From Calditrichia bacterium (GTDB lineage Bacteria; Calditrichota; Calditrichia; RBG-13-44-9; J075): 61,231 nucleotides of DNA. Of the stretch, positions 24,709-37,255 are shown piece by piece; the stretch's first letter is position 1; each line of letters starts with the position of its first letter. Below the pieces are notes generated by a model. That model did no database searches. It saw only the letters and a program-made list of their open reading frames with translations, and was not told the DNA's origin. Location: assembly GCA_050633245.1 (NCBI GenBank), contig JBOEGD010000003.1, forward strand, positions 15,011 through 76,241, read 5' to 3'. Position numbers and translations under genes: made by a program.

Positions 24709-27700
24709 ATGCCAAGCGTGCGTACTTCAGTTTTTGCACTCACCTTTTTATTATCCTTTCTTCTGCTTTCTTCGGGACTTATGGCACAGGTTGGCTACCA
24801 ATTTGGCCAGAATAAAGTCCACTATAAAGATTTCGACTGGAAAGTTTTCAGAACTGAACATTTTGATGTCCACTACTATCCGGAAGAAGAACAAGCAGCC
24901 TACGACGCGGCTCGAATGGCCGAGCGTGGATACGATTATCTCAGCGAAGTACTCGAACACGACATAAAGAAGCGTATTCCGCTTATTCTCTATGCTTCGC
25001 TAAACGATTTTCAACAAACCAATGTAATTAGCGGCTTTATCGGCGAAGGGACTCGTGGTGTTACCGAGAGTCTGAAAAACCGCGTGGTCTTGCCGATAAC
25101 CGGATCTTACCGCGAATTCAATCACGTATTAGTACACGAACTGGTTCACGCATTCCAATTCGATATCATGGCACTGAAGCTCACCAGTACTCGCAGTAAT
25201 GTCCCGCTATGGGTTGTTGAAGGTATGGCAGAATACCTCTCTAATAACATGGATAACATTACCCGGATGTGGGTGCGCGATGGTCTGGAGCGCGATAAGC
25301 TTTTAACCGTTAAGCAGCTCAACGGAACCTTCGACATCCGCGTATATCGCCTGGGACAATCCTTCTGGCACTACATCGGCGAGACGTACGGCAAGGAGAA
25401 AGTTGGTGCAATCTTCAAATCGGCAATTCATCAGGGTGGCTTCGACCAGGCGCTAAAGAAGCACATTAGTAAGAATGAAAAAGAGGTGACCAAGGACTGG
25501 CACGCATATGCGAAGGCTAATGCACTCCCGGGCGACAGTACGCTGCAGTCGCCTTCAGATATTGCTCAACAGATAACTCGGCAACGCAGCTTCTATCACC
25601 GAATGAATGTGGTTCCGTCTATTAGCCCGGACGGAGAGCACGTTGCTTATATCGCAAATCAAAACCTTAAAGAGGAGATTTATCTTCTCAGTGAGGATAA
25701 CAACGCGTCATTTGTCGATCAGCGGCTGATCAAGGGCGGAGACAGCAAAAGTTTTGAAGCACTCCGCTACTTTGATACTGCTATTGGCTGGGCCCGGGAT
25801 GGAAAAAAGATTGCCTTTGTTTCCAAGTCAGGCCAGGATGACGCGATATATATCATGGATCCGCATAGCCGTAAGGTGTTACAGCGCTTTATTTTTGATG
25901 AGCTGAACGGCTTGCAGTCCCCCACTTTCTCTCCCGAGGGTAATCGTATCGCATTTGTTGGAATCCGCGGAGGCATATCAAATCTGTATCTGCTCGATCT
26001 GGACAGTGGTGCGTTGGATCAGCGAACAGACGATCGCTATGCAGTATTGCATCCACAGTGGTCGCCAGACGGCGGTAGTATTGCTTTTACAACTGACCGC
26101 GGACCGGATGCCAACGAGGCAGAGCTGATCTTCAGTGATTACGATATCGCCCGGTATCACCTGTCGACCGGAAATGTAGAGCTTCTTACAGATTTACAGG
26201 GAAGCGTTACCAATCCACAGCTATCACCCGACGGAGAGACGGTGGCCTTTGTTTCCGACCACCAGGGAATTGCCAATATTTATCGCATGAACATTGGCTC
26301 TCGTGAGTTGCAACGACTGACCAGCTTCAAGAACGGTATTTCCGGCATAACCAATACCACACCCAGCTTTAGCTGGTCTGCAAATGGTGAGCGTATGGTA
26401 TTCTCCGCTTTCTATGACAATGCCTGGCATTTGTTTCGCCTGAATGCTAAGCAAATAGAGGAACTGGCTGCGGAAACGCCTTCTGTTACGCTGGACCCGG
26501 TTTCCGAAATTACCAAAGCCGCTATGGCAAATAAAGAACCTCGCCCCATTAAAGAAATGGTGAGCACGAGTGACAGTATGCTCGCAATAAACAACGAGGA
26601 TTCAACGCTTGGTGAGGCCGAAGTTATAGCGAGTTCAGAGTCCGACTGGATTCCCGAGCTTGCCGATCAGAATGACATTTATCGCAGCTACGAGCTGGAA
26701 GAGCCTGATTCAGTAGAATCAACAAACTACAGAAAACGCTTTAAGCTGGATGCGGTTGGCGTTGGTGGATCAGTCGGTGGTTTTTTCGGCTCGGTAGGCG
26801 CTGCGCAGTTTCTCTTCAGCGACATGCTGGGAGACCACAGCGTCATTCTGTCTACAGAGGTCAGCTTTAGTGATTTCAGCAGTTCAGATTTTGGACTCAC
26901 TTATTTCAACCAGGCAAATCGCATTAGTTGGGGCGTGCAGGCGTTTCAAACGAGTAATATTTTCTCTGTTTTCAGAACAGGAATTAATAGCCTTGGCTAT
27001 CTGCGCAATACCTATCGCGGCGTTAATGCGGTTGCAGCTTATCCGTTCAGCAAATTTAGCAGGCTGGAAGTTTCCGGAGGCTTTACCTGGGTCGATCAGA
27101 ATTTGGTTCAGGACAATTTCAGCAACCGCGGTATTGATCGCGATGTGGAAACGCTGAACAGCTTTACTTATGGCCAGGTGGGAACAGCGCTGGTCTTCGA
27201 CAATACGCTATATGGTCCGGTGGGGCCAACAGGAGGGTCACGCAGTCGCTTCTCGGTTGAGACGACAACCAGCGATTTTCAGTTCACCAATCTACAGGCG
27301 GACTATCGCAAATACTTCCAGCTTCCCGGACGCTCGGTATTAGCCTATCGCGCAACGGCAGCCGCAAGCCTCGGAGAAGACGAACGCATTTTCGGATTGG
27401 GCGGACCTTACACCTATCGTGGGGCAGATTTTAACGAGATTCTCGGAAGCAAGTTTGTCTTGAGCAATCTGGAATATCGCTTCCCATTATTTGGATTTCT
27501 TACACCGAGGCTCGATTTAATAAGCGGAGCCGCCTTTTTTGACGCTGCCGGTGCCTGGGGAATAGATGCTCCGGGTTTAATCAGCGAAACATTTCAGCCA
27601 TTTACAGCAGATGGTGGATTTAGACTTAACGATTTGAATGCAGCTTATGGAGTGGGAGCCAGGGTAAGCCTGGGATATTTTTATCTCGGGTATGATGTTG

Positions 27701-27851: not shown

Positions 27852-28571
27852 TTACTTCTCTTCACCCGGCAACATTCCCATCTTGCGTTTTAGCGCTTCA
27901 AGAGAATCTGCAGCAGTGGCTGAACCACCACTTTCGAGTGCAGCATCAATTTCCTCGTCTACCGTAGCGCCGGCATCCTGCAGCTCACCGTAGGCTTCGG
28001 CAAGAGATTCTTCTTCGGTAACCTTGTCCTTCATTTTTTCCAGCATTGCAATCGTGCTGGTTGCATCGACCTGTGCCATCTGTTTGTTGATCTTTTTCAT
28101 CGAGTGGGCAGTGCGGGCACGAGCCTTTAGTGTGGTTAGCTCATTTTCATATTTACCAACAGCCGACTTCAGCTTATTAACCTTGGCCTGGAGCTTGTCT
28201 GCCATTGCCTGCTGACTCTTGTGATTGGTGAGCATTTCAGTAGCGCGTTTGGCTGCGATTTCCTTGCGGGAAAGTGCTTCGGTTGCCAGGCGATCGGCTT
28301 CAGCTGCATCAAGGTCGCCATCTTGACCGCGCTTTAGAAGCGCCACTGCCTTGCGCTCATAGTCTTTTGCCAGACTCTTGGCATCATTACCATCTTTACT
28401 CATGCGAATAGAAATGGCTTTTACTTCAGCCAAGCTTTTCATGGCGCCATTCAGATCTTTTTTCAGATCGCGAATACCCTGCTCCGTCATGCGAATCGGA
28501 TCTTCCAGCTTGTCTATAACCGAATGTGTTTCGGACTGAAACAGTCTAAATATTCTTGCGAAAATTCCCAT
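27852..28571 (-). CDS. pspA: PspA/IM30 family protein (second paralog, YjfJ-like)
   Basis: MGIFARIFRLF amphipathic helix, DKLEDPIRMTEQGIRDL, long coiled coil, LEALKRKM C-terminus. Confidence 0.9.
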   Translation of the reverse strand: MGIFARIFRLFQSETHSVIDKLEDPIRMTEQGIRDLKKDLNGAMKSLAEVKAISIRMSKDGNDAKSLAKDYERKAVALLKRGQDGDLDAAEADRLATEALSRKEIAAKRATEMLTNHKSQQAMADKLQAKVNKLKSAVGKYENELTTLKARARTAHSMKKINKQMAQVDATSTIAMLEKMKDKVTEEESLAEAYGELQDAGATVDEEIDAALESGGSATAADSLEALKRKMGMLPGEEK

Positions 28572-28647
28572 ATGTCTATCCTTTCAACGTTGTCATTTTC
28601 AAAAATCGTTTAGAATTGATCATTTAATATTGAAAAATAGTCAATTG

Positions 28648-29037
28648 CTAAGCGTATGTAAGTAATTCACTGCCGTATTCGGCCAGACCAAGCGATAGTG
28701 CCTGAATTGAAGCTTCCAGTTCATTCGGATCCAGGTTTTCAATTTGCAGCGTATCGCGAAAAAGGACTTTATCTCCGGCTTCGTTCAGGACAAATGCACC
28801 ATGAACCAGCGTGCGATTCATCTGCAGCAAACGCTTATACAAATCGCCGGGATTTGACGGCACGTTCAAGATAAACTGCTCGATGACCACGATCGGGTCT
28901 TCGCAATCGACGACCATATTCTGGATACCATTTTCAACGTCATCGACAACCACGATGTGATCAGCAGATTCTTCGTTGACGATCTTCATATCCAGATCCA
29001 TTAACAAATACTTCACCATTTCAAATTTGTCGGACAT
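28648..29037 (-). CDS. CesT/Tir-YbjN-like chaperone-fold protein
   Basis: Small acidic protein with LLQMNRTLVHGAFVL...FRDTLQIENLDPNEL; next to pspA, the usual context for this family. Confidence 0.7.
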   Translation of the reverse strand: MSDKFEMVKYLLMDLDMKIVNEESADHIVVVDDVENGIQNMVVDCEDPIVVIEQFILNVPSNPGDLYKRLLQMNRTLVHGAFVLNEAGDKVLFRDTLQIENLDPNELEASIQALSLGLAEYGSELLTYA

Positions 29038-29094
29038 ACATCATTCTCCTTTTTACCATTAAACTGTATTTATTAGGACGCTTATTTTATTCGT

Positions 29095-29321
29095 TCGCTG
29101 TGTTCACTGCTTGGACGCTCACTACGTTCGCTTGTGGGTCGCACCTGCGGTGCTGGTAGAACGTTCCGCTGCGCTTCACTTGTAGTTGTAGGTCGCTCAC
29201 TATGTTCGCTTTTAGTTCTTACCTCCTACAAGCCCGACAAAGGAGGGCCCCTATTTCCTACTAGTCCCGGCGTGCCGGGACGACCTACCCACTACCAGTG
29301 CAGGCCCAAGGCCAAGCGATC
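29095..29321 (-). repeat. Modular interspersed palindromic element, copy 1
   Basis: Reverse complement aligns with 52402-52530 in two blocks; internal repeats of CGCTCACTA(C/T)GTTCGCT. Confidence 0.75.
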
Positions 29322-29686
29322 TAGCCTTTAAGATGCTTCTTCAATATATCATGTGCTTCATTCAGACCCTGCAGCAATTCCGTGGCAATACGCTGTTTTT
29401 CTTCATTGCCGGAGTGCATATCCGGATGATACTGCCGAACCATTTTTTTCCACGCTTTGTGTACCGTTTCGTAATCTGCTCCGTACGGTAACTCAAGATT
29501 CGCATAGCAGCGCGCCAAATCCGGGTCTTCATTCGAATACGTTTCGGATTGACCTCTACTACTCTTGCTCTGGCGGTACGAGTTATCATTCGGTTGGCGA
29601 TACTGCTCGCTACCTGGGCGAAACGTGTCCAGCTTTTCCTGAACAACCGAACGGACAATGTTAAATAATCGCTCTACAATTGACAT
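29321..29686 (-). CDS. Small protein with C-terminal J (DnaJ) domain
   Basis: YANLEL...KAWKKMVRQYHPD...LNEAHDIL (HPD motif). ATG overlaps the upstream stop (TAATG). Confidence 0.85.
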   Translation of the reverse strand: MSIVERLFNIVRSVVQEKLDTFRPGSEQYRQPNDNSYRQSKSSRGQSETYSNEDPDLARCYANLELPYGADYETVHKAWKKMVRQYHPDMHSGNEEKQRIATELLQGLNEAHDILKKHLKG

Positions 29687-31257
29687 TAATAGAAGTTCCA
29701 CGCACCGTTTTTATAATAATGATATACTGACAAATCCAGCTCATCAGCAACTTTTATTTCATCTAACCTGTCCAATGTTCCTTTGCCAAAGCGCAACATG
29801 CCAACCACAGCATCCTTATTTAGATAGCGCGTATTTATCTGCGAATAATCTGCCTGTTCAATTCGCTGCTGCAAGGCAACATGATTTTGCTCTGGCGTTT
29901 TCATGCCCAAAACCCATCCCCATTCACCGAGGGTGGGAATATGCGTATGATAAGCAACTGCCGAATACTCGGCGGCTCGCATCGTTTTTAATATCGACAA
30001 AAATGCATCGCTGGAAAAAAACGGACTGGTCGCCTGAGTTACAACTACGCTTCCCGGTGACATGCAGCGACGCACCTGCTGATAAAACTCACGGGTATAA
30101 AGCCGAGCCAGACTAACCGTCTTGGGATCGGGCAGATCAATGATGACCACATCAAATATCATATCGGTTTCACGCAAAAAGATGTAGGCATCCATATTGC
30201 GAATTTCAACTCGCGGATCTTTCAATGATTCCTTATTCAGTTCCAAAAACTTCTCGTTCTCCAGTCCAAGCCTTGTTACCGCGGGATCCAGGTCGACCAA
30301 AACGATTTCTTCGACTTCCGGATATTTAAGAATTTCCCGCACGGCCATGCCATCTCCACCGCCAAGAACCAGAATGCGCTTGCGCGCAGCGCTTGCTACC
30401 ATTGCCGGGTGAACCAGTGGCTCGTGATAACGCTCTTCGTCATAACTGCTAAACTGCTGGTTACCGTTCAAATACAGCCAGATATCATCATTATGTTTTG
30501 TAATAACAATTCGCTGATACGGCGTCTGCTGTTGAAAGATCACCTGATCGACATATTTTTTCTGCTCGCCATACATGATTATCGGCTCTGAACCAATTCC
30601 CAATGCAAGCAGCGAGATTGGAACGAGAATAAACGCGTACAATAGTTTGCGACCATAGCGCAACGCTGAGCGATTTTGGAAGAACAATACCGCTGCTACA
30701 ATAAAATTCACACCGCCCAGAATGATTGGCGTATAAGTCAGTCCAAGATATGGCAGTGCAACAAAGGCGAATATCAGGCCGCCAAGAAGCGCACCGTAAT
30801 AGTCTTTTTCCATCACCGAGCTGATGTTGATGTGCAGATCTTCAAAGACATCGTTCAACCGCGTGGCAATAGGAATTTCGAGTCCGATCAGGGTACCAAT
30901 AGAAAACGAAATCGCATAAATATACAGGCCAACCCATTCTACATTCGCGGAAACAAGGTAGGTGCTGGTTGCACTGACCGCACAAAGCACCGAAAGTATC
31001 AGCTCAATAATAATAAATGTATCGAGTAAGTTGCGATGTATGTGTTTACTTATACGACTGCCAACGCCCATTGCAAACAACATAATCGAGACCGTCATTG
31101 TCCACTGCACAACCGAATTGCCGAGCATATAACTGGCAAGCGTTGCCATAACATATTCTGCCACAATTCCGGCAAGACCGGTGGCAAAGATACAGGCCTT
31201 CAGCGTTAGGTTGCCATTAAAACGACCAGCAGATGTTGTCGCAGTCTGATTACTCAC
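29686..31257 (-). CDS. speE: Membrane-bound polyamine aminopropyltransferase (spermidine synthase-like)
   Basis: N-terminal TM bundle, then QTPYQRI, DEERYHEPLVHP, LGGGDG, VDLD and IDLPDP. GTG start overlaps the upstream TAG. Confidence 0.9.
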   Translation of the reverse strand: MSNQTATTSAGRFNGNLTLKACIFATGLAGIVAEYVMATLASYMLGNSVVQWTMTVSIMLFAMGVGSRISKHIHRNLLDTFIIIELILSVLCAVSATSTYLVSANVEWVGLYIYAISFSIGTLIGLEIPIATRLNDVFEDLHINISSVMEKDYYGALLGGLIFAFVALPYLGLTYTPIILGGVNFIVAAVLFFQNRSALRYGRKLLYAFILVPISLLALGIGSEPIIMYGEQKKYVDQVIFQQQTPYQRIVITKHNDDIWLYLNGNQQFSSYDEERYHEPLVHPAMVASAARKRILVLGGGDGMAVREILKYPEVEEIVLVDLDPAVTRLGLENEKFLELNKESLKDPRVEIRNMDAYIFLRETDMIFDVVIIDLPDPKTVSLARLYTREFYQQVRRCMSPGSVVVTQATSPFFSSDAFLSILKTMRAAEYSAVAYHTHIPTLGEWGWVLGMKTPEQNHVALQQRIEQADYSQINTRYLNKDAVVGMLRFGKGTLDRLDEIKVADELDLSVYHYYKNGAWNFY

Positions 31258-32099
31258 TACACAACCCATCCCACCAGAAATGAAGCGCCGATATACGAGC
31301 AGGCTTCCATTGCTCCGGCAGCAACATTCGGAACTTTTTGATTCACCAGTTCATCGGTAAGCTGCTCACCCGGCAGCAACAGCTTATCTGCAAGTAGGCG
31401 TAAAACCGGCAGCATCAGCAAACCAAAAGTAACGAAGCCCACATAAACAACGCCATTGTCGTACCAAGAGATAAAGTCGCCCTGTGAACCTATGCGAATA
31501 ACATTGCCAATAGCGATAAGCATTCCCGCATAGGCGACGCCAACGGCGGCATTGTCGCGCTCAAGCTCGTAGTTCAAATCGAAGGGTAATGTATTATTGT
31601 AAATGATGCTGGCAACAACCAACGTCACCTGTCCAATTACCCAAAAGGCGGCAGCGGTAAATATAGTTCCTTCACCGGACATCGCACCAAAAATAACAAG
31701 TCCGACAGCAACATGATTCGCGGCTTCGACAACCCCGATGCCGGCATTGCGATCGACTATCAGCTCTTTGACATTGTCAAATTTGTGAAAAATTATCTTG
31801 TCGTTAATAACAATTGAAATATTTAGCAGGATGATCGACATAATTCCGTAGAGGAAGATATCGATGAGATCGTTAACAAGTCCGGCAGACTCGCCCTGTA
31901 ATACCCCGCCAAGCGCAATGACCATACCGAAGTAGTAGCCAAACAACGCCAATCCGAGAGCAAAATTGTCTTTTTTTACCAGCTCTTCCTGCAGATCGAA
32001 ACTGGTATTCAGCTTATCGTAAATAATTTTTCCGAGGAAAAAGAGGAAGAACACTGCGATTAGATAAACAGTGGCTGTTAAAACTTCATCAAATGTCAT
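31257..32099 (-). CDS. DUF350 (YjfL-like) membrane protein, duplicated domain
   Basis: Repeated units (EELVKKDNFALGL, ELIVDRNAGIG, YELERDNAAVGV, ELVNQKVPNVAAG); context next to speE and DUF4178. Confidence 0.8.
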   Translation of the reverse strand: MTFDEVLTATVYLIAVFFLFFLGKIIYDKLNTSFDLQEELVKKDNFALGLALFGYYFGMVIALGGVLQGESAGLVNDLIDIFLYGIMSIILLNISIVINDKIIFHKFDNVKELIVDRNAGIGVVEAANHVAVGLVIFGAMSGEGTIFTAAAFWVIGQVTLVVASIIYNNTLPFDLNYELERDNAAVGVAYAGMLIAIGNVIRIGSQGDFISWYDNGVVYVGFVTFGLLMLPVLRLLADKLLLPGEQLTDELVNQKVPNVAAGAMEACSYIGASFLVGWVV

Positions 32100-32132
32100 G
32101 GCAGTCTCCGAATCATTCTTTCAATTCTTTTG

Positions 32133-32873
32133 CTATTTACCAAAACCACCACTGCTTCTGCTGCGCGTGCGGCTCATATTTGTTCTGCGGGTTCGTTTCT
32201 GCACTTTATTGCGGAACGATTCTTTAGAAGAACTTTGGCGCATCTGTCTGCGTTGGAAAAAGTCCGGATTACTTTTCTTTGTGTAGCTACCGCTGGTGCC
32301 GTATTCATTTTTCTTACCGTAGTAGGTTCTTCCACTTCGGCGATGGTCGCGATAAGTGGTCCAGTCCCCACGATCAATTCGTCCACGGTTTCCCATGCGG
32401 AACAAATCTCCCAATATCCTCGAGGTACCGTACCACACCCAGAACGAGCTACCACCACCGGGTTGGCTTTCCCAACGTCCATAGCGTTCATCACCAACAT
32501 AGTCGTATCCAGGCGGTTGTTCAACAGTACTTTCTTCACCGTCTTTCTTGGTAACCAGCGCCATTCCCAGACTTTTTTCATACTTTCGATAATCGCTTTC
32601 TGAAACGCGCTTCCAAGGGATATTTATTGAAGAAAAGATCGGCGTCCCATCAGAGTTATTTTCACCCGAAGCGTATACGACCCGGTACTTATGATAATAA
32701 TCTGTAGAAAAGTTGCCTTCTTCGTTCATGTCCTCCAGAATAATGGTGTATTCCGGGTAACTTGTCATTTGGCTTTTCAGGCTCTCTAGGGTTGATCCGC
32801 GAACGGCGCTTCCACCGGTTCCGCAATCGCAGGCGCGCAGGAAAAAAATCAAGCCGGCAAATAAGGCAAACAT
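32133..32873 (-). CDS. Exported/membrane-anchored protein with Arg/Ser/Gly-rich tail
   Basis: Hydrophobic segment with Cys (LIFFLRACDC), YDYVGDERYGRW...FWVWYG core, low-complexity end RTRSRSSGGFGK. Start uncertain; the frame is open back to 33050. Confidence 0.7.
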   Translation of the reverse strand: MFALFAGLIFFLRACDCGTGGSAVRGSTLESLKSQMTSYPEYTIILEDMNEEGNFSTDYYHKYRVVYASGENNSDGTPIFSSINIPWKRVSESDYRKYEKSLGMALVTKKDGEESTVEQPPGYDYVGDERYGRWESQPGGGSSFWVWYGTSRILGDLFRMGNRGRIDRGDWTTYRDHRRSGRTYYGKKNEYGTSGSYTKKSNPDFFQRRQMRQSSSKESFRNKVQKRTRRTNMSRTRSRSSGGFGK

Positions 32874-32950
32874 TTTAAGGTGAGACGGTGCTCCGGAGCG
32901 ACGCGTTTTTTTACGTGGTCTTGGAGGTTCTGGTCGGCCGGCGCCGACTT

Positions 32951-33514
32951 TTACTTTCCCAGGCCTTCCTCTCCCCCCGGTAGTATATTGGTGAACTGAT
33001 ATTCCTTCACGTAGAAACCTTTTGACGCTTCGAAACGTTCTTCGCCCCACTGCTCGATTTCCACATACTTATCGTCACCGCTATCGATGAAGCACCAGTA
33101 AACCAGCCCCACTTTCTCGAAATTACCGTTTTCGATAAAGTGCACCGGGCCGGATTCATCCAGATAATAGGTTTCACCACCGACAGTGATCTCTTTTTGC
33201 GGGTCATCTGTACGTTTGATACTGGAAGCCACATCCTCCTGAATATCAGAGAGCGGAATCTTCGTACAGATACTCCACCAAACGTCATCGTCTTCTTCCC
33301 GGATCAGATAAACCTTTTCACGTCCGGATGTCAATTCCCACTCATCGGAAACCGTGCCTTCACCATAATCATAACGGTTATAGGCCGTTACTTCCCAGGT
33401 CTTAAGGTCATAATCCAGATAGTAGCCCACTTTTAACGCATCGAGCGATAGGTCTGAAAGTGGATCAAAATTATCTTCTTCGTCTTTGCTTTTGAAGATA
33501 TCGAACAATCCCAT
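32951..33514 (-). CDS. DUF4178 domain protein
   Basis: MGLFDIFK amphipathic start, acidic beta-rich body (EWEL, YYLDESG, IEQWGE); AGGAG RBS; usual neighbour of DUF350 and speE. Confidence 0.75.
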   Translation of the reverse strand: MGLFDIFKSKDEEDNFDPLSDLSLDALKVGYYLDYDLKTWEVTAYNRYDYGEGTVSDEWELTSGREKVYLIREEDDDVWWSICTKIPLSDIQEDVASSIKRTDDPQKEITVGGETYYLDESGPVHFIENGNFEKVGLVYWCFIDSGDDKYVEIEQWGEERFEASKGFYVKEYQFTNILPGGEEGLGK

Positions 33515-33609
33515 AAAACTGCTTCTCCTAATGGGTAGATTGGTTGAATTTATCCCGGCGAAATTTAGGCAGCCGGAGATCAATTACCAAATGATGAATC
33601 GAATTCTGC

Positions 33610-34452
33610 TTACTGATCAATTTTTCGCTGAATAGCTTGTTTTAACATCCAGTCATCGTAGCCTCTTGGTGCTTTGCCATCACGGGCAAAACGATAGAGG
33701 GCCGTCTGAAAGATCATAACGAGTGCGGACTGTATCTGACTTAGCACAAAAAGATAGAGAACACCGAGCCCTAGCATAAAGTAGCCGACCAGGCTTGAGC
33801 CCATAGCCGAACCGGCGGCAATCCCAAGTATTGCCGGAATTGCAAATATAAAGAAGATAATCCCGTAGCTAAATCCGCTTATCAGCTGCTCCCCCCAGGT
33901 ACGGCGTAACAATCCAGCGGAGCGTTTAAGCGATTCTATCGGACCAAGGTTTTCAGCAACCATAATCGGCACAACGAAATAACTGGCCATTGTCCATGCA
34001 ACGCCTACAAAGCTCAGGAGAATTTTTCCCAGCCAACCAACGCGTTCCTCCAGCATACGGATAAGAAAGCCCACAGTTGCAGCAACCAACGACCAGCCTA
34101 AAATCAAATGTACTTTTGAAAACGCAACATTGAGGCCGTCCATAAATTTTGGATCACCGCCGCTCATGCGAATTTGCACGGTAGCCACAATTGCTGAATT
34201 AAAAAAGTTTATGACAAAGTAATTAACCACATAGAAAAAGAAGATCAGTGAGTATAGAAAAAAGTCGCCATTATTTTCCGGGGACACGAGATCCAGCTGC
34301 CCGGAATAGAAGACGGGAATTAAAAATGATGCCGTAACAGCGACGCAGCTCAAAATAGAGATAAACGAGTATACCATTATCTCGCCATCTTCTTTCAGTA
34401 ATTCCCAAGAGGCCATCATCATTGCCCAGGTATTTTGTAACTTATTTAACAT
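33610..34452 (-). CDS. Multi-pass membrane protein (DUF6159 / glycerophosphodiesterase-membrane-like)
   Basis: About 6 TMs with FVVPIMVAENLGPIESLKRSAGLLRRTWGE; AAGGAG RBS. Confidence 0.7.
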   Translation of the reverse strand: MLNKLQNTWAMMMASWELLKEDGEIMVYSFISILSCVAVTASFLIPVFYSGQLDLVSPENNGDFFLYSLIFFFYVVNYFVINFFNSAIVATVQIRMSGGDPKFMDGLNVAFSKVHLILGWSLVAATVGFLIRMLEERVGWLGKILLSFVGVAWTMASYFVVPIMVAENLGPIESLKRSAGLLRRTWGEQLISGFSYGIIFFIFAIPAILGIAAGSAMGSSLVGYFMLGLGVLYLFVLSQIQSALVMIFQTALYRFARDGKAPRGYDDWMLKQAIQRKIDQ

Positions 34453-34529
34453 ACACAAGCTCCTTTTGTTAGCAGCAATCCGTTGTTATAAAAATGCTAT
34501 TATATGTAATGTCGTCATTGGTTGGCAAA

Positions 34530-35021
34530 TAAAAGAACTGGTCACCCCCACGTTTCCCCTCGCTCCATGTGGGGGCGCCGTTCCCAGTAGATTTTCCCCC
34601 GAAAACCTACCCTCGTGTTCCCGCCGCGTCCGAGCGGCGGTTTATCCATCACTACCTGGCTTCCCCTTGGCCCACGCAGCAATGAAATTTTATGTTCAGA
34701 TCAAAATAAGCATTTTCATTCCTCTTACGGCGATGCCGTCCCACTTCCCTGTGGGTCTTCCCAACAAGGTCATCGCCTCCTCCCCGGGGGCACACCTCCC
34801 AGAATGACACCGGTTCTCCTACCATTCGTAGCGTATGGGTCACGCTACACCTTCCTCCCGTCTCTTTTTCATCACCATCATTGTGATTTTACCCACCACA
34901 ATCATTGCGGTGCTACTCCGCCGGGTGACATGTATAAATGTGTCTCTCCATTTATACGTCCTCCCCTGTCTCCTCACATGGGCCGCCGCCCATTGTCTCA
35001 AGAGCATCCTCACAATGCTCT
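34530..35021 (-). ncRNA. Putative multi-hairpin, GGA-rich structured RNA inside the psp operon
   Basis: About 13 consecutive hairpins; about 24 GGA on the minus strand and 0 on the plus strand (manual count); stem mismatches are mostly G-U on the minus strand; ends in a GC stem followed by a U-rich tract. Confidence 0.65.
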
Positions 35022-35721
35022 ATTTTTTCAACTTTTTCTTCAACTTTTCAAGTTCATCTTCAATGGCCTTGTCTTTGGCCAATTTGCGCAGGTCGATATC
35101 ACTGCTCTGCATATCCATCATTTCCTGCGCTGCTTCTGCCTCGGCTTCAAGCTGCATAATGTCTTGCTCATAAGACTCTATCTGATCGCCGCCGTGAGTA
35201 TTGATATCGCTAATTGAACCGGTAAGTGCATTAAAGGCATCTCTGCTCTTTTGCAGGGCGTGCTGTGTGCGCAATTGCGCTTCAGCAGAACGTTTGCGAC
35301 GAATCAGTTCTTCCTTCTTGCGGCGTGCAATTTGCACCTGATCTTCCAGCTTAAAGAGATCGCCCTTTAGCTGACTTGCTAATAGTTCGGCACTTTTATG
35401 ATCATTTTTAAGCGTATCGATTGCTTCCTCACGTTCAAAGCGTTTTGCCAAGATTTCTCGTGCAACATCTTCCTTACCAGATGCTAATGCCGCGCCTGCT
35501 TTCTCCTCGAGATCGTTACTTAAGTCTTCCGCTGCGTGCAGTTGCTTTTCGAGCTGTTTCTGCTGTCCGATAGCCTTAACCGTTTCGCGACGCAGCTCAA
35601 TAATGCTTTCTTCCATATCACGGATAATTTGTTTAACCATAACTTCCGGATCTTCTGCTTTATCTAACACGTGATTTATATTGGCGCTTAGTAATTTCGA
35701 GATGCGTTGAAAAATATTCAT
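35020..35721 (-). CDS. pspA: PspA/IM30 family protein (first paralog)
   Basis: MNIFQRISKLLSANINHVLDKAEDPEVMVKQIIRDMEE, coiled coil, IEDELEKLKKKL; GGGAGGA RBS. Confidence 0.92.
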   Translation of the reverse strand: MNIFQRISKLLSANINHVLDKAEDPEVMVKQIIRDMEESIIELRRETVKAIGQQKQLEKQLHAAEDLSNDLEEKAGAALASGKEDVAREILAKRFEREEAIDTLKNDHKSAELLASQLKGDLFKLEDQVQIARRKKEELIRRKRSAEAQLRTQHALQKSRDAFNALTGSISDINTHGGDQIESYEQDIMQLEAEAEAAQEMMDMQSSDIDLRKLAKDKAIEDELEKLKKKLKK

Positions 35722-35754
35722 GTGTTCCTCCCACCGACGTCTTGTCGGACTTGA

Positions 35755-36144
35755 TTAGTTTGCTTCGTGGGTAATATGTTTTATTGCAAGCGCAGGATGA
35801 TAAGCGACTAATAGCAGGCTTTCCTGATTTTTTCTGCCCGATCGTGCCAGTGTCTTCTGATGGATTGTAAGATCCTTTGCATGTCGCAGAATCACAATTT
35901 GAACGCTTCCAAAACACTTCACTACCGCTTCCACACCTGAAGGATACTTATTTTCCACCGACGGTTGATATTGAAACCGAATGCTTTCGCTTTTTAATTC
36001 ATTAAGGAGGTTTTGTACAAAGCTATCAGACAATCCTGTTGTCTGCACACGACCGAAGGCCCTTCGGGCTGCGCGTGCAATAAGAAGCGTTTTCGCTTCA
36101 AGAACCTGCTGTTGTCGATTTGAACGCTTTGTGGTTTCTACCAT
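35755..36144 (-). CDS. Hypothetical small basic protein, first gene of the sigma54 psp operon
   Basis: 129-codon ORF filling the space between the sigma54 promoter and pspA; purine-rich GGGAAGGA upstream; no recognisable family. Confidence 0.55.
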   Translation of the reverse strand: MVETTKRSNRQQQVLEAKTLLIARAARRAFGRVQTTGLSDSFVQNLLNELKSESIRFQYQPSVENKYPSGVEAVVKCFGSVQIVILRHAKDLTIHQKTLARSGRKNQESLLLVAYHPALAIKHITHEAN

Positions 36145-36212
36145 TTTAGCGGAGAGTCCTTCCCTTGTGTTTACCCGAACACTGGTGTGATCATCATCAC
36201 TACCACCATTAG

Positions 36213-36228
36213 AGCAACAGGTGTGCCA
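36213..36228 (-). promoter_or_regulatory. Sigma54 (RpoN) -24/-12 promoter
   Basis: Minus strand reads TGGCAC-ACCTG-TTGCT, an exact match to TGGCAC-N5-TTGC, just downstream of a bEBP gene and upstream of pspA. Confidence 0.88.
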
Positions 36229-36233
36229 ACTCG

Positions 36234-36246
36234 TAAGTTATTGTTT
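36234..36246 (-). promoter_or_regulatory. IHF-like binding site
   Basis: AAACAA-TAAC-TTA against consensus WATCAANNNNTTR (1 mismatch), between the UAS and the sigma54 box. Confidence 0.55.
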
Positions 36247-36271
36247 TTATTGAATCGGGGTTTTGAAGAGT

Positions 36272-36307
36272 TGGTGTATTACACCAGATGGCTGAAAATT
36301 ACACCAA
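36272..36307. promoter_or_regulatory. Putative PspF upstream activating sequence
   Basis: Perfect palindrome TGGTGTA-T-TACACCA (36272-36286), followed by a second ATTACACCA half-site overlapping the activator stop codon. Confidence 0.6.
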
Positions 36308-37255
36308 TATATCTGCGAGCTTGTATTTCTTATAGTAGTGACGAAATTGATCGTAAGATAATCCAAGATGTTCTGCAGCAGCACGCTGATTTCCCTCAGA
36401 GTCCTTTAAGGCAGTAATGAGCAGATTCTTTTCATAGGCACGCACTTTTTCCTGAAAATTTCCGCGAATAGGTTCAGTTGCGGTAATCTCTATTGGAAGC
36501 TCAGAGGCATGGATGGTGCCATCTTCGTCTGAAATATAGAGTCGCTCAATAACGTTTTTCAGCTGACGAATATTTCCAGGCCAGTAATAGTTCTTTAACT
36601 CTTTCACTGCAGAAGGCGTAAAATGCTTGTCTTCCAGATCGGGGATTTCGACATGTAGCTCTCCGATAAAATATTCGATTAAGGCTGGGATATCTTCCCG
36701 GCGCTTGCGCAGAGGCGGTAGTTTGAGTTCGGCAAAGCAAAGGCGATCGTATAAATCTCGCAGGAATTCCTTTTTATCCATCATCTGTTCGAGGTCGGCA
36801 TTGGTTGCAGCAATAATGCGTACATCAACCTCGATAGAATCTGATCCCCCAAGACGTTCAAACTTTTGATATTCAATAACTCGCAGTAATTTTTCCTGAA
36901 CGCGGCGACTCATATTTGCAACTTCATCGAGGAAAAGAGTGCCGCCATTAGCACGTTCCAAACGCCCCGGTCGTGCTTCGGTTGCTCCGGTGTATGCTCC
37001 CTTTTCATGCCCGAACATCTCCGCAACAAAAAGGTCTTCCTGAAAGGCCGCGCAGTTTACCACAATGTATGGCATGTCCACACGCGGGCTTTGATTATGG
37101 ATAAAGCGCGCCATTAGCTCTTTACCCGTGCCGCGCTCACCGCGTATCAGCAACGGTCGCGGAATTTTGGCAAGCGTACGGGCATTGGCCAGCATTTTCA
37201 GGAACTCATTACTTTCGCCAACGCCTGGCGTACTATGAAATGGGGATGTACTCAT
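36299..37255 (-). CDS. pspF: PspF-like sigma54-dependent transcriptional activator (AAA+ and HTH, no N-terminal regulatory domain)
   Basis: GERGTGKE, VNCAA, EMFGHEKGAYTGA, LFLDEV, WPGNIRQLKN, and HTH NQRAAAEHLGLSYDQFRHY; lies directly upstream of pspA. Confidence 0.88.
   Translation of the reverse strand: MSTSPFHSTPGVGESNEFLKMLANARTLAKIPRPLLIRGERGTGKELMARFIHNQSPRVDMPYIVVNCAAFQEDLFVAEMFGHEKGAYTGATEARPGRLERANGGTLFLDEVANMSRRVQEKLLRVIEYQKFERLGGSDSIEVDVRIIAATNADLEQMMDKKEFLRDLYDRLCFAELKLPPLRKRREDIPALIEYFIGELHVEIPDLEDKHFTPSAVKELKNYYWPGNIRQLKNVIERLYISDEDGTIHASELPIEITATEPIRGNFQEKVRAYEKNLLITALKDSEGNQRAAAEHLGLSYDQFRHYYKKYKLADILV

Follow-up and report, generated by a model that had tools for sequence, protein, structure and literature searches.

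The 61,231-nt stretch of Calditrichia bacterium DNA analysed here (the window), from an uncultured marine organism, carries, immediately downstream of the phage shock protein gene pspA1 and on the same minus strand, a structured non-coding element of about 490 nt that ends in a terminator-like hairpin. We hold with high confidence that it is a real, selected, structured RNA element new to Rfam, and judging from the sequence it is probably a functional, lineage-specific (Calditrichia) RNA belonging to the 3′ untranslated region (3′UTR) of the psp operon. As to its mode of action, we tentatively favour, at somewhat less than an even chance, a structured RNA domain acting through a bound protein, with CsrA as the lead candidate.

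Fold, conservation and non-coding nature of the element

The ~560 nt that follow pspA1 hold no credible open reading frame (ORF) before the start of the DUF6159 gene, and the element occupies the first ~490 nt of this interval. Its 5′ edge is the pspA1 stop codon (35020-35022), and its 3′ edge is the final stem with its U-tract (Table 1). It lies, as would be expected of a 3′UTR-derived RNA, between a stop codon and what is predicted to be the terminator of the same mRNA.

The sense strand folds far better than shuffled sequences do: its minimum free energy (MFE) is −188.4 kcal/mol, compared to −154.9±6.3 kcal/mol for 100 dinucleotide shuffles, none of which was as good (z −5.34). The antisense strand reaches −150.6 kcal/mol (z −4.99), i.e., the sense strand is more stable by ~38 kcal/mol, a difference gained from G-U pairs. 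The MFE structure comprises 13 hairpin loops vs. 9.3±1.7 in 200 shuffles, 3% of which reach 13. These data agree with an earlier note on this DNA, made from the letters alone, which had described a chain of about 13 hairpins after pspA1. All the hairpins it listed were found on the minus strand, the folding energy indicates that these palindromes are real, and its counts for positions 34530-35021 (24 GGA on the sense strand and none on the antisense strand, with TGTGAGGA present twice) proved exact. The last stem and the U-rich tract are present as well, although the stem is longer than had been described: in the MFE structure GGGAACGGCGCCCCCAC pairs with GTGGGGGTGACCAGTTCT, followed by TTTATTT. 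A simple terminator scan with a loop limit of 8 nt omits this stem, the loop being 17 nt long. The terminator-like hairpin is supported by both the MFE and the consensus structures, and helices 4 and 5 are 95-100% paired.

Two homologous loci on metagenome contigs, L017 and L018, were found by a PspA-anchored search (PspA 87% and 86% identical, respectively). In both, pspF is followed in order by orf125, pspA, an element of ~480 nt, DUF6159 and DUF4178, and the element again folds better than each of 100 shuffles (z −3.94 in L017 and −6.37 in L018). Closer relatives occur on contigs of three sequencing runs (X1, X2 and X5). The RNAalifold consensus of the three full-length sequences contains 132 pairs, and compensatory changes are seen in 8; in the last four hairpins 92.8% of the cells are paired, vs. 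36-52% when the partners are slid. Several differences between the homologs bear on the strand. In hairpin h7, the window has U-G at four pairs that are C-G in the relatives, a change that only this strand tolerates; position 34788 is C in the window and A in L017, L018, X1, X2 and X5, which restores a U-A pair; and h6 differs in sequence in L017/L018 with its stem staying in place, three of five pairs having changed on both sides (alignment A4, by eye). These changes and the 38 kcal/mol advantage speak for an RNA of the sense strand. Support for the fold itself comes from thermodynamics and conservation and not from covariation.

The conservation of the element rises toward its 3′ end and stops at the U-tract, and RNAs derived from 3′UTRs show the same pattern, with conservation concentrated toward the 3′ end. 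Compared to L017/L018, the 5′ half has 59% identity over aligned columns and at least 55 gap columns in addition, h7-h8 have 70-75% and the last four hairpins 79-81%, and right after the U-tract the identity falls to 39-41%. The third codon positions of pspF, pspA and DUF6159 are 44-48% identical in the same comparison (33-48% with orf129 included). L017 and L018 share 93-98% identity in the element, with 93-94% for the 3′ core, and 60-65% at third codon positions. Invariant columns account for 83% of the paired and 73% of the unpaired positions of the last four hairpins; the three homologs also share an almost identical terminator loop of 17 nt. Since the identity exceeds that of third codon positions, and since both stems and loops are largely invariant, the 3′ core is, on this sequence evidence, under purifying selection, stems and loops alike.

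In the 5′ half, whole hairpins have been inserted, lost or replaced among the relatives. One X2 contig covers the full 2151-nt stretch compared, with 99 substitutions and 63 gap letters (the X1, X5 and X9 contigs cover it in part), and it bears a 28-nt insertion at ~34901 that resembles a duplicate of the hairpin ATTGTGGT...ATCACAAT (by eye). It is this insertion, along with the hairpin differences from L017/L018, that points to whole-hairpin turnover. Within this variable half, one invariant block (Table 1) forms the hairpin GGGC-GGCG-GCCC, followed by AUGUGAGGA. By eye, the block also contains AUGUGA, a start codon directly abutting a stop codon, which is kept in all three homologs.

Codon-level conservation and a multi-copy mobile repeat, which the earlier note had named as grounds for rejecting an RNA, were both looked for and not found. 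Stop codons occur in all three sense frames in each of the three homologs, the substitution counts by position modulo 3 are flat (no 3-periodicity), the indels between homologs are not multiples of three, and a short ORF starting from a shared GTG after AGGAG runs across h8 in differing frames in the window and in L017/L018 (by eye). A Pfam search of six ORFs of the element gave no match. All three loci have long ORFs on the antisense strand, with only one 23-residue stretch in common; they are explained by the purine-rich sense strand, which leaves few stop codons on the other strand. With no conserved frame on either strand, the element is, as far as its sequence tells, neither a protein gene nor a pseudogene. 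Both BLAST and a covariance model found it to be single-copy in its own 6.3-Mb genome.

The Rfam search that had been proposed showed that no known family covers the element, and it also returned no match to a Csr or Rsm model there. At the gathering score, there were no Rfam matches in the window; at E up to 10, the region 34300-35300 gave only noise with E above 1; and at E up to 1, the L017 and L018 loci gave no family, the matches listed being at chance level and differing between the loci. BLAST of the element against 40 relatives produced only chance matches of 27 and 35 nt, and 0/15 other genomes of the family gave a match. A covariance model of the last four hairpins (R1), run on 101 genomes (its own and 100 others), recovered its own copy and a single match in the same family (locus L022, G015:C398:25870-25975; 25.3 bits, E 0.0022 per genome), which is not significant over 101 genomes. 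Exact-pattern scans of genome contigs and viral contigs gave no matches, and no RNA run is among the sequencing runs listed as holding the element. No GGA-rich spacer follows pspA in the other psp loci of the family that were inspected; in 7 of 11 family psp loci, a gene for a ~200-aa (amino acid) membrane protein stands 50-380 nt after pspA (translations, by eye). In L015 (G008), a 193-aa ORF lies right after pspA, unlike in most relatives, which suggests an insertion (by eye).

The phage-shock locus and the predicted transcript

The element would be synthesised as the 3′UTR of a transcript driven by PspF and sigma54 that starts at the sigma54-type promoter, passes through orf129, pspA1 and the element, and ends at the terminator-like hairpin (Table 1); as such, it would appear whenever the phage-shock response fires. 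The promoter has 10 of the 11 positions of what we take to be the sigma54 consensus, and its offset is the same in all three loci (the window, L017 and L018). The pspF-like activator gene is 91% identical in L017 and L018. The control by sigma54 and PspF proposed in the earlier note thus stands in that the promoter is conserved in 3/3 loci and pspF is adjacent, but the promoter lies upstream of orf129 and not directly before pspA. Scans of the three loci revealed no internal sigma54 or sigma70 promoter that is conserved, and a weak sigma70-like match (9/12) inside the end of pspA has no counterpart listed in L017 or L018. A single PspF-dependent transcript comprising orf129, pspA1, the element and the terminator appears to be the most economical reading. 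An apparent sigma54 site, TGGCACgatcgGGCA at ~35835-35850 (by eye), scored below the scan cut-off and is not the conserved site.

The first gene of the operon, orf129, has 54% amino acid identity to its homologs in L017 (2009-2386) and L018 (2583-2960) and a coding-type codon-position pattern. Weaker, N-terminal homologs stand between pspF and pspA in other Calditrichia family loci that are devoid of the RNA. The Atlas model of orf129 has a predicted local distance difference test (pLDDT) value of 0.41 and gave no usable structural match. As an RNA-binding partner, the orf129 product was considered and rejected: it has no family and no Atlas match, it has homologs in loci lacking the RNA, and nothing links it to the element.

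Table 1. Features of the element and of the psp locus (positions in the window)
Feature	Position	Strand	Remarks
Structured non-coding element	34527..35021	−	starts at the pspA1 stop codon, ends with the U-tract of the terminator
Variable 5′ half, hairpin array	34814..35021	−	alignment A1, columns 1-280
Invariant block GGGCGGCGGCCCATGTGAGGA within the variable half	34971..34991	−	identical in 3/3 sequences
Conserved 3′ core, six hairpins	34532..34813	−	interrupted by a variable A/U-rich linker at 34691-34725
Hairpin h8	34729..34777	−	outer stem GGCGATG/CATCGCC around CCCAC-AGGGAA-GTGGG (34740-34755)
Terminator-like hairpin	34527..34585	−	~15 pairs; 17-nt conserved loop opening with ACAUGGAG; then UUUUAUUU
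Sigma54-type promoter TGGCAC-N5-TTGCT	36213..36228	−	~505 nt upstream of the pspA1 start, upstream of orf129
pspF-like sigma54 activator gene, 318 aa	36299..37255	−	Pfam Sigma54_activat 4.5e-62, HTH_8
orf129, first gene of the operon	35755..36144	−	no Pfam or NCBIfam match; conserved protein
pspA1, 233 aa, PspA/IM30	35020..35721	−	Pfam PF04012, 1.8e-34
Sigma70-like promoter TTGCCA-18-TATAAT	34499..34528	−	directly after the terminator, before DUF6159; 11/12 matches
DUF6159 membrane protein gene	33610..34458	−	Pfam PF19656, 7e-50

The psp supercluster extends over 27852-37255 of the minus strand and includes pspF, orf129, pspA1, the RNA, DUF6159, DUF4178, an ORF and DUF350, as well as genes for a spermidine-synthase-domain protein and a DnaJ-domain protein, a YbjN/CesT-like gene and pspA2. 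The YbjN/CesT_Tir_1 protein (PF22550, 5.9e-50; 28648-29037, minus strand) is encoded directly upstream of pspA2; CesT of enteropathogenic E. coli is described as binding CsrA competitively (PMC7652899). The DnaJ-domain and YbjN-like genes are separated by a 285-nt spacer (29038-29322, minus strand), which contains three AGCGAAC-RUAGUGAGCG-like words and is not unusually stable (z 0.14).

Many intergenic regions of the genome (G000) hold purine-rich tandem heptamer repeats, such as (ATCGGGA)n, (GTGAGAM)n, (AGTGAAA)n and (ATGTGAG)n, found at C9:119150-119275, C9 ~175650-175800, C7 ~377100-377220, C16 ~90680-90780 and C6 ~25850-26030. Those ORF-poor outliers of a genome-wide GC-skew scan (300 nt; noisy) that were inspected as possible relatives of the element turned out to be such repeats. 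Right after the terminator of the element, L017 (3600-3700) and L018 (4160-4260) have (AAGTTCA)n-like repeats with an inverted copy.

Candidate CsrA sites in the 3′ core

The check for csrA and fliW suggested in the earlier note found both in the genome. There is one csrA copy (PF02599, 94.5 bits) encoding 82 aa, with L4 and R44 present (by eye), the two residues named as critical in PMC7652899, and FliW, the protein antagonist of CsrA, is encoded too. The genome also has an RNase E/G gene; Hfq (PF17209) and ProQ (PF04352) were not found in this 97%-complete assembly.

According to PMC7652899, the site bound with high affinity by CsrA/RsmE is a hairpin with an ANGGAN hexaloop closed by AC/GU, and the consensus from SELEX (systematic ligand evolution by exponential enrichment) is RUACARGGAUGU. 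The element contains one strict site of this type, the inner hairpin of h8. At 34743-34752 it reads ACAGGGAAGT in the window, ACACGGAGGT in L017 and ACACGGACGT in L018, so that only N positions vary, and it is the sole ACANGGANGW match within the window. The expectation for the strict motif is 0.05 per element shuffle and 0.011 per 492 nt genome-wide. A second ACANGGA stands at the start of the conserved terminator loop.

Outside the window, the leader of the main flagellin gene in the same genome (contig C18, ~153879-153888; start codon at 153893) contains ACACGGAGGT, a perfect match to ACANGGANGU, which overlaps the Shine-Dalgarno sequence 5 nt before the ATG, and further GGA triplets lie 30 and 46 nt upstream. 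The flagellin mRNA is presented in PMC7652899 as a classical CsrA target in FliW-type bacteria, and a CsrA-FliW-flagellin circuit is likely to operate in Calditrichia bacterium. Because the same consensus overlaps the flagellin Shine-Dalgarno sequence, this suggests that the CsrA of this organism reads the canonical motif. For Pseudoalteromonas CsrA, RNA immunoprecipitation sequencing is reported to give a peak upstream of pspABC (PMC11882849).

Judging from its sequence, the element resembles an RNA that carries one or two good candidate CsrA sites and does not resemble CsrB. We propose for it a two-part anatomy, with a fast-evolving 5′ array of simple hairpins and a 3′ core of ~285 nt that would serve as the protein-binding module. 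The core may be active as part of the mRNA, or in the form of a stable 3′ piece set free by cleavage in the A/U-rich linker (34691-34725). The h8 site and the ACANGGA of the terminator loop would suffice for one or a few CsrA dimers, and the element would then be a low-capacity CsrA-binding element rather than a high-capacity sponge of the CsrB type.

A number of observations weigh against this proposal. The element has only one strict CsrA site, and the h8 match was recognised post hoc in a genome with 279 strict-motif matches. The inner stem of h8 consists of five G-C-rich pairs within a 9-pair outer stem, and the SELEX ligands of CsrA described in PMC7652899 mostly have four pairs or fewer, so that the site may be less accessible. 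Just 3 of the 24 GGA fall in MFE hairpin loops (2.2±1.6 in 200 shuffles, 40% of which reach 3), and 8 are fully unpaired (6.0±2.2 in shuffles). The presence of FliW means that the organism does not need an RNA antagonist of CsrA. The strong conservation of the loops would fit another protein ligand or a tertiary fold equally well. As for the conserved structure anticipated by the earlier note in orthologous loci, structured homologs do exist in two relatives, but the covariation is not distinguishable from that of shuffles: in the last four hairpins one pair is changed on both sides (165/500 shuffles are as high), and their covariation score is reached by 144/500 shuffles. This weakness follows from the material, i.e., three full-length homologs, two of them nearly identical. 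Furthermore, PspA, PspF and orf129 are common to the family, and the element is confined to one genus-level clade and is thus not a general part of the Psp system. Finally, co-transcription, the RNA ends, processing, CsrA binding and a regulatory effect would all have to be as the sequence suggests.

Other explanations, known systems and biological meaning

A simpler explanation is that the element works purely in cis, its hairpins and terminator shielding the orf129-pspA1 mRNA from 3′-to-5′ exonucleases, insulating this mRNA from the downstream genes and raising the yield of PspA. We consider this unlikely, though worth keeping in mind. The position between the stop codon and the terminator and the very stable stems are in its favour, as is the tolerance of the 5′ half to gain and loss of whole hairpins, which is expected if only stability matters there. 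In addition, pspA2 of the same locus has a short terminator only, which makes the long version specific to the PspF-controlled copy. Protection, however, needs stems and not sequence, and yet 73% of the unpaired positions in the last four hairpins are invariant and the terminator loop is nearly the same in all three homologs. Moreover, known protective 3′ hairpins need far less than 490 nt.

The reading put forward in the earlier note, a high-capacity decoy like CsrB or RsmZ, in which a PspF-induced RNA with many GGA motifs titrates CsrA or another GGA-binding protein and links envelope stress to global translation, is improbable. The same applies in equal measure to its broader version, where a PspF/sigma54-induced decoy of ~490 nt, or its processed 3′ core, would capture CsrA or regulators directed to ribosome-binding sites under membrane stress. 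On the sense strand of 34530-35021 there are 12 GGGA, 10 GGAG, 10 GAGG and 5 GGAGG, and by motif density the locus comes 2nd in the genome for GGGA and 3rd for GAGG, and it belongs to the top 6 for GGAGG; the other top loci inspected (C9, C25 and C10) are a heptamer repeat or lie within long open frames. The three homologs have 24, 18 and 19 GGA, and about half of these triplets are predicted to be unpaired (mean unpaired probability 0.53-0.56 vs. 0.38-0.40 overall). One canonical and one near-canonical CsrA site are conserved, csrA is present and Hfq and ProQ were not found, and the role of a Csr RNA would be unfilled in this genome because no known Csr RNA reaches its cut-off genome-wide. 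Csr RNAs evolve by modular, fast-changing hairpin arrays, which the 5′ half resembles.

The statistics do not bear this decoy out. The element is composed of 175 G, 133 A, 93 T and 91 C (492 in total), and its GC skew of 0.316 and purine content of 0.626 are matched by only 35 and 82, respectively, of 63,196 genome windows of 492 nt. In dinucleotide shuffles of the element, GGA occurs 20.7±2.9 times (24 is reached by 16% of 2000 shuffles), GGGA 8.1±2.1 times (12 is reached by 6%) and TCC 3.3±1.5 times (its absence is seen in 1.5%). Because the GGA count is within the shuffle expectation, the GGA excess is compositional: the unusual feature is the G/A-rich, C-poor composition itself, from which the GGA count follows. 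The GGA in loops and the unpaired GGA are within the shuffle expectation as well. A local scan for hairpins with GGA in a small loop found 4 in the element; the genome averages 1.2 per 400 nt, and the highest counts at other loci are 8-12. Several loop GGAs are not conserved; the one in h8 is kept in 3/3 homologs, but those of h9 and h10 are lost in L017. In the 5′ half, the loops GGCG, GAGAGACA, AGTAGCA, GGGTAAA and GACCCAT have no GGA at all. None of the CsrB, RsmZ and RsmY models matches at the element or reaches its cut-off anywhere in the genome, the best scores being 21.4 bits for CsrB (cut-off 71) and 17.6 bits for RsmY (cut-off 57), with none for RsmZ. Thus, the element shares with CsrB/CsrC and RsmX/Y/Z of Gammaproteobacteria (RF00018, RF00166, RF00195) the multi-hairpin, GGA-rich, non-coding character, an AC-ANGGAN-GU hexaloop hairpin and a csrA-bearing host. 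It differs from them in that it matches no model, has 3-4 small-loop GGA, which is not above chance, has long stable stems, and would reside in the 3′UTR of an mRNA and not in a separate gene, in a FliW-bearing Calditrichia host. The many GGA in hairpin loops that would define the design are not there, and the idea of a CsrB-type decoy is weakly supported.

No better placed, and likewise improbable, is a leader or attenuator role, in which the RNA would sense a protein or ligand and set the read-through of the terminator into DUF6159, DUF4178, DUF350 and other genes. Among the psp loci compared, DUF6159 occurs only in the three RNA-bearing ones, so that the two co-occur in 3/3 and are both missing from the other family loci; no sigma70-like promoter lies between the terminator and DUF6159 in L017 and L018 by a scan that covers the sigma70-type consensus only; the conserved terminator loop bears ACANGGA; and CsrA is described as affecting transcript elongation (PMC7652899). 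In the window, on the other hand, a near-consensus sigma70 promoter (11/12) follows the terminator, no conserved antiterminator pairing was found by eye, and the DUF6159 genes of two other genomes of the same class have no such element upstream.

We consider it more doubtful still that the element is a base-pairing RNA or Shine-Dalgarno mimic, whose single-stranded GGAGG and GAGG would pair either with small RNAs through their C/U-rich seeds or with 16S rRNA through its anti-Shine-Dalgarno sequence, the element acting as an RNA sponge. The 5 GGAGG and 10 GAGG place it among the genome's top 3-6 loci, and the purine-rich linkers GGAGGAGGCG and UGGAGGAAA are conserved in the homologs. These counts, however, are marginally above the element's own composition (reached by 6% of shuffles for GGAGG and by 3% for GAGG), and Hfq was not found. 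A search for one motif of the 16S 3′ tail gave no match in the assembly.

That the element has no function, being a decayed gene, mobile repeat or compositional junk, is very hard to credit: the narrow distribution (one genus-level clade, 0/15 family genomes by BLAST, one weak covariance-model match in 100 other genomes) and the long antisense open frames might suggest it, but it is single-copy, no frame is conserved on either strand and no Pfam match exists, the antisense frames are expected from the purine-rich sense strand, and the conservation of the core, far above third-codon identity, largely refutes it.

Beyond the Csr sponges, the proposed protein-binding element may be compared to three other kinds of RNA. 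In function, the closest analogue is CpxQ, described as a small RNA released by cleavage of the 3′UTR of cpxP, an mRNA of the envelope-stress response (PMC4817254). Like CpxQ, the element is a non-coding RNA that would be transcribed together with the effector gene most strongly induced in such a response and would end at that gene's terminator, and its conservation is concentrated at the 3′ end. Unlike CpxQ, which is short and acts by Hfq-dependent base pairing, it is ~490 nt long and purine-rich and comes from a genome where Hfq was not found, and the two have no sequence relation. The hag leader of Bacillus subtilis and the flaA leader of Campylobacter jejuni are given as CsrA-binding RNAs of FliW-type systems (PMC7652899, PMC4894983). 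The element resembles them in its predicted embedding in an mRNA, in having one or two (here candidate) CsrA sites, and in belonging to a FliW host whose CsrA has a long C-terminus; the ACANGGANGU consensus is also found in the flagellin leader of this genome. In those leaders, by contrast, the sites lie 5′ of the coding region, overlap the ribosome-binding site and control translation, whereas the element is located 3′ of its coding region and is far larger than two sites require. OLE, GOLLD, HEARO, ROOL and raiA are large bacterial non-coding RNAs whose function is partly or not known. The element recalls them in its size class of ~500 nt, its many conserved helices and its conserved loops, and some of them have a narrow range too; unlike them, it has no Rfam match in its region at E up to 10, and three homologs are too few to show a complex tertiary fold.

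The earlier note knew of no such RNA in psp loci, and full-text literature searches on psp-linked small or UTR-derived RNAs (titles, abstracts) likewise found no psp-encoded regulatory RNA; a further search turned up no paper that mentions both CsrA and either Calditrichota or Caldithrix. Envelope-stress effectors whose mRNAs contain a regulatory RNA are known for Cpx (CpxQ), and none were found for Psp in these searches. The narrow distribution of the element limits its significance. Even without CsrA, it would be a candidate large structured RNA of 490 nt with loops conserved as strongly as its stems, in Calditrichota, a phylum with very few cultured members. If the PspF-induced decoy were true, the element would be the first regulatory RNA to be linked with a psp operon and, should it capture CsrA, the first RNA that antagonises CsrA in a non-proteobacterial phylum of the FliW type. 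If the element is expressed and binds CsrA, as we tentatively propose, then translation under CsrA control can receive direct input from a membrane-stress regulon, FliW bacteria have RNA ligands of CsrA other than the flagellin mRNA, and such RNAs can arise de novo within a single genus.

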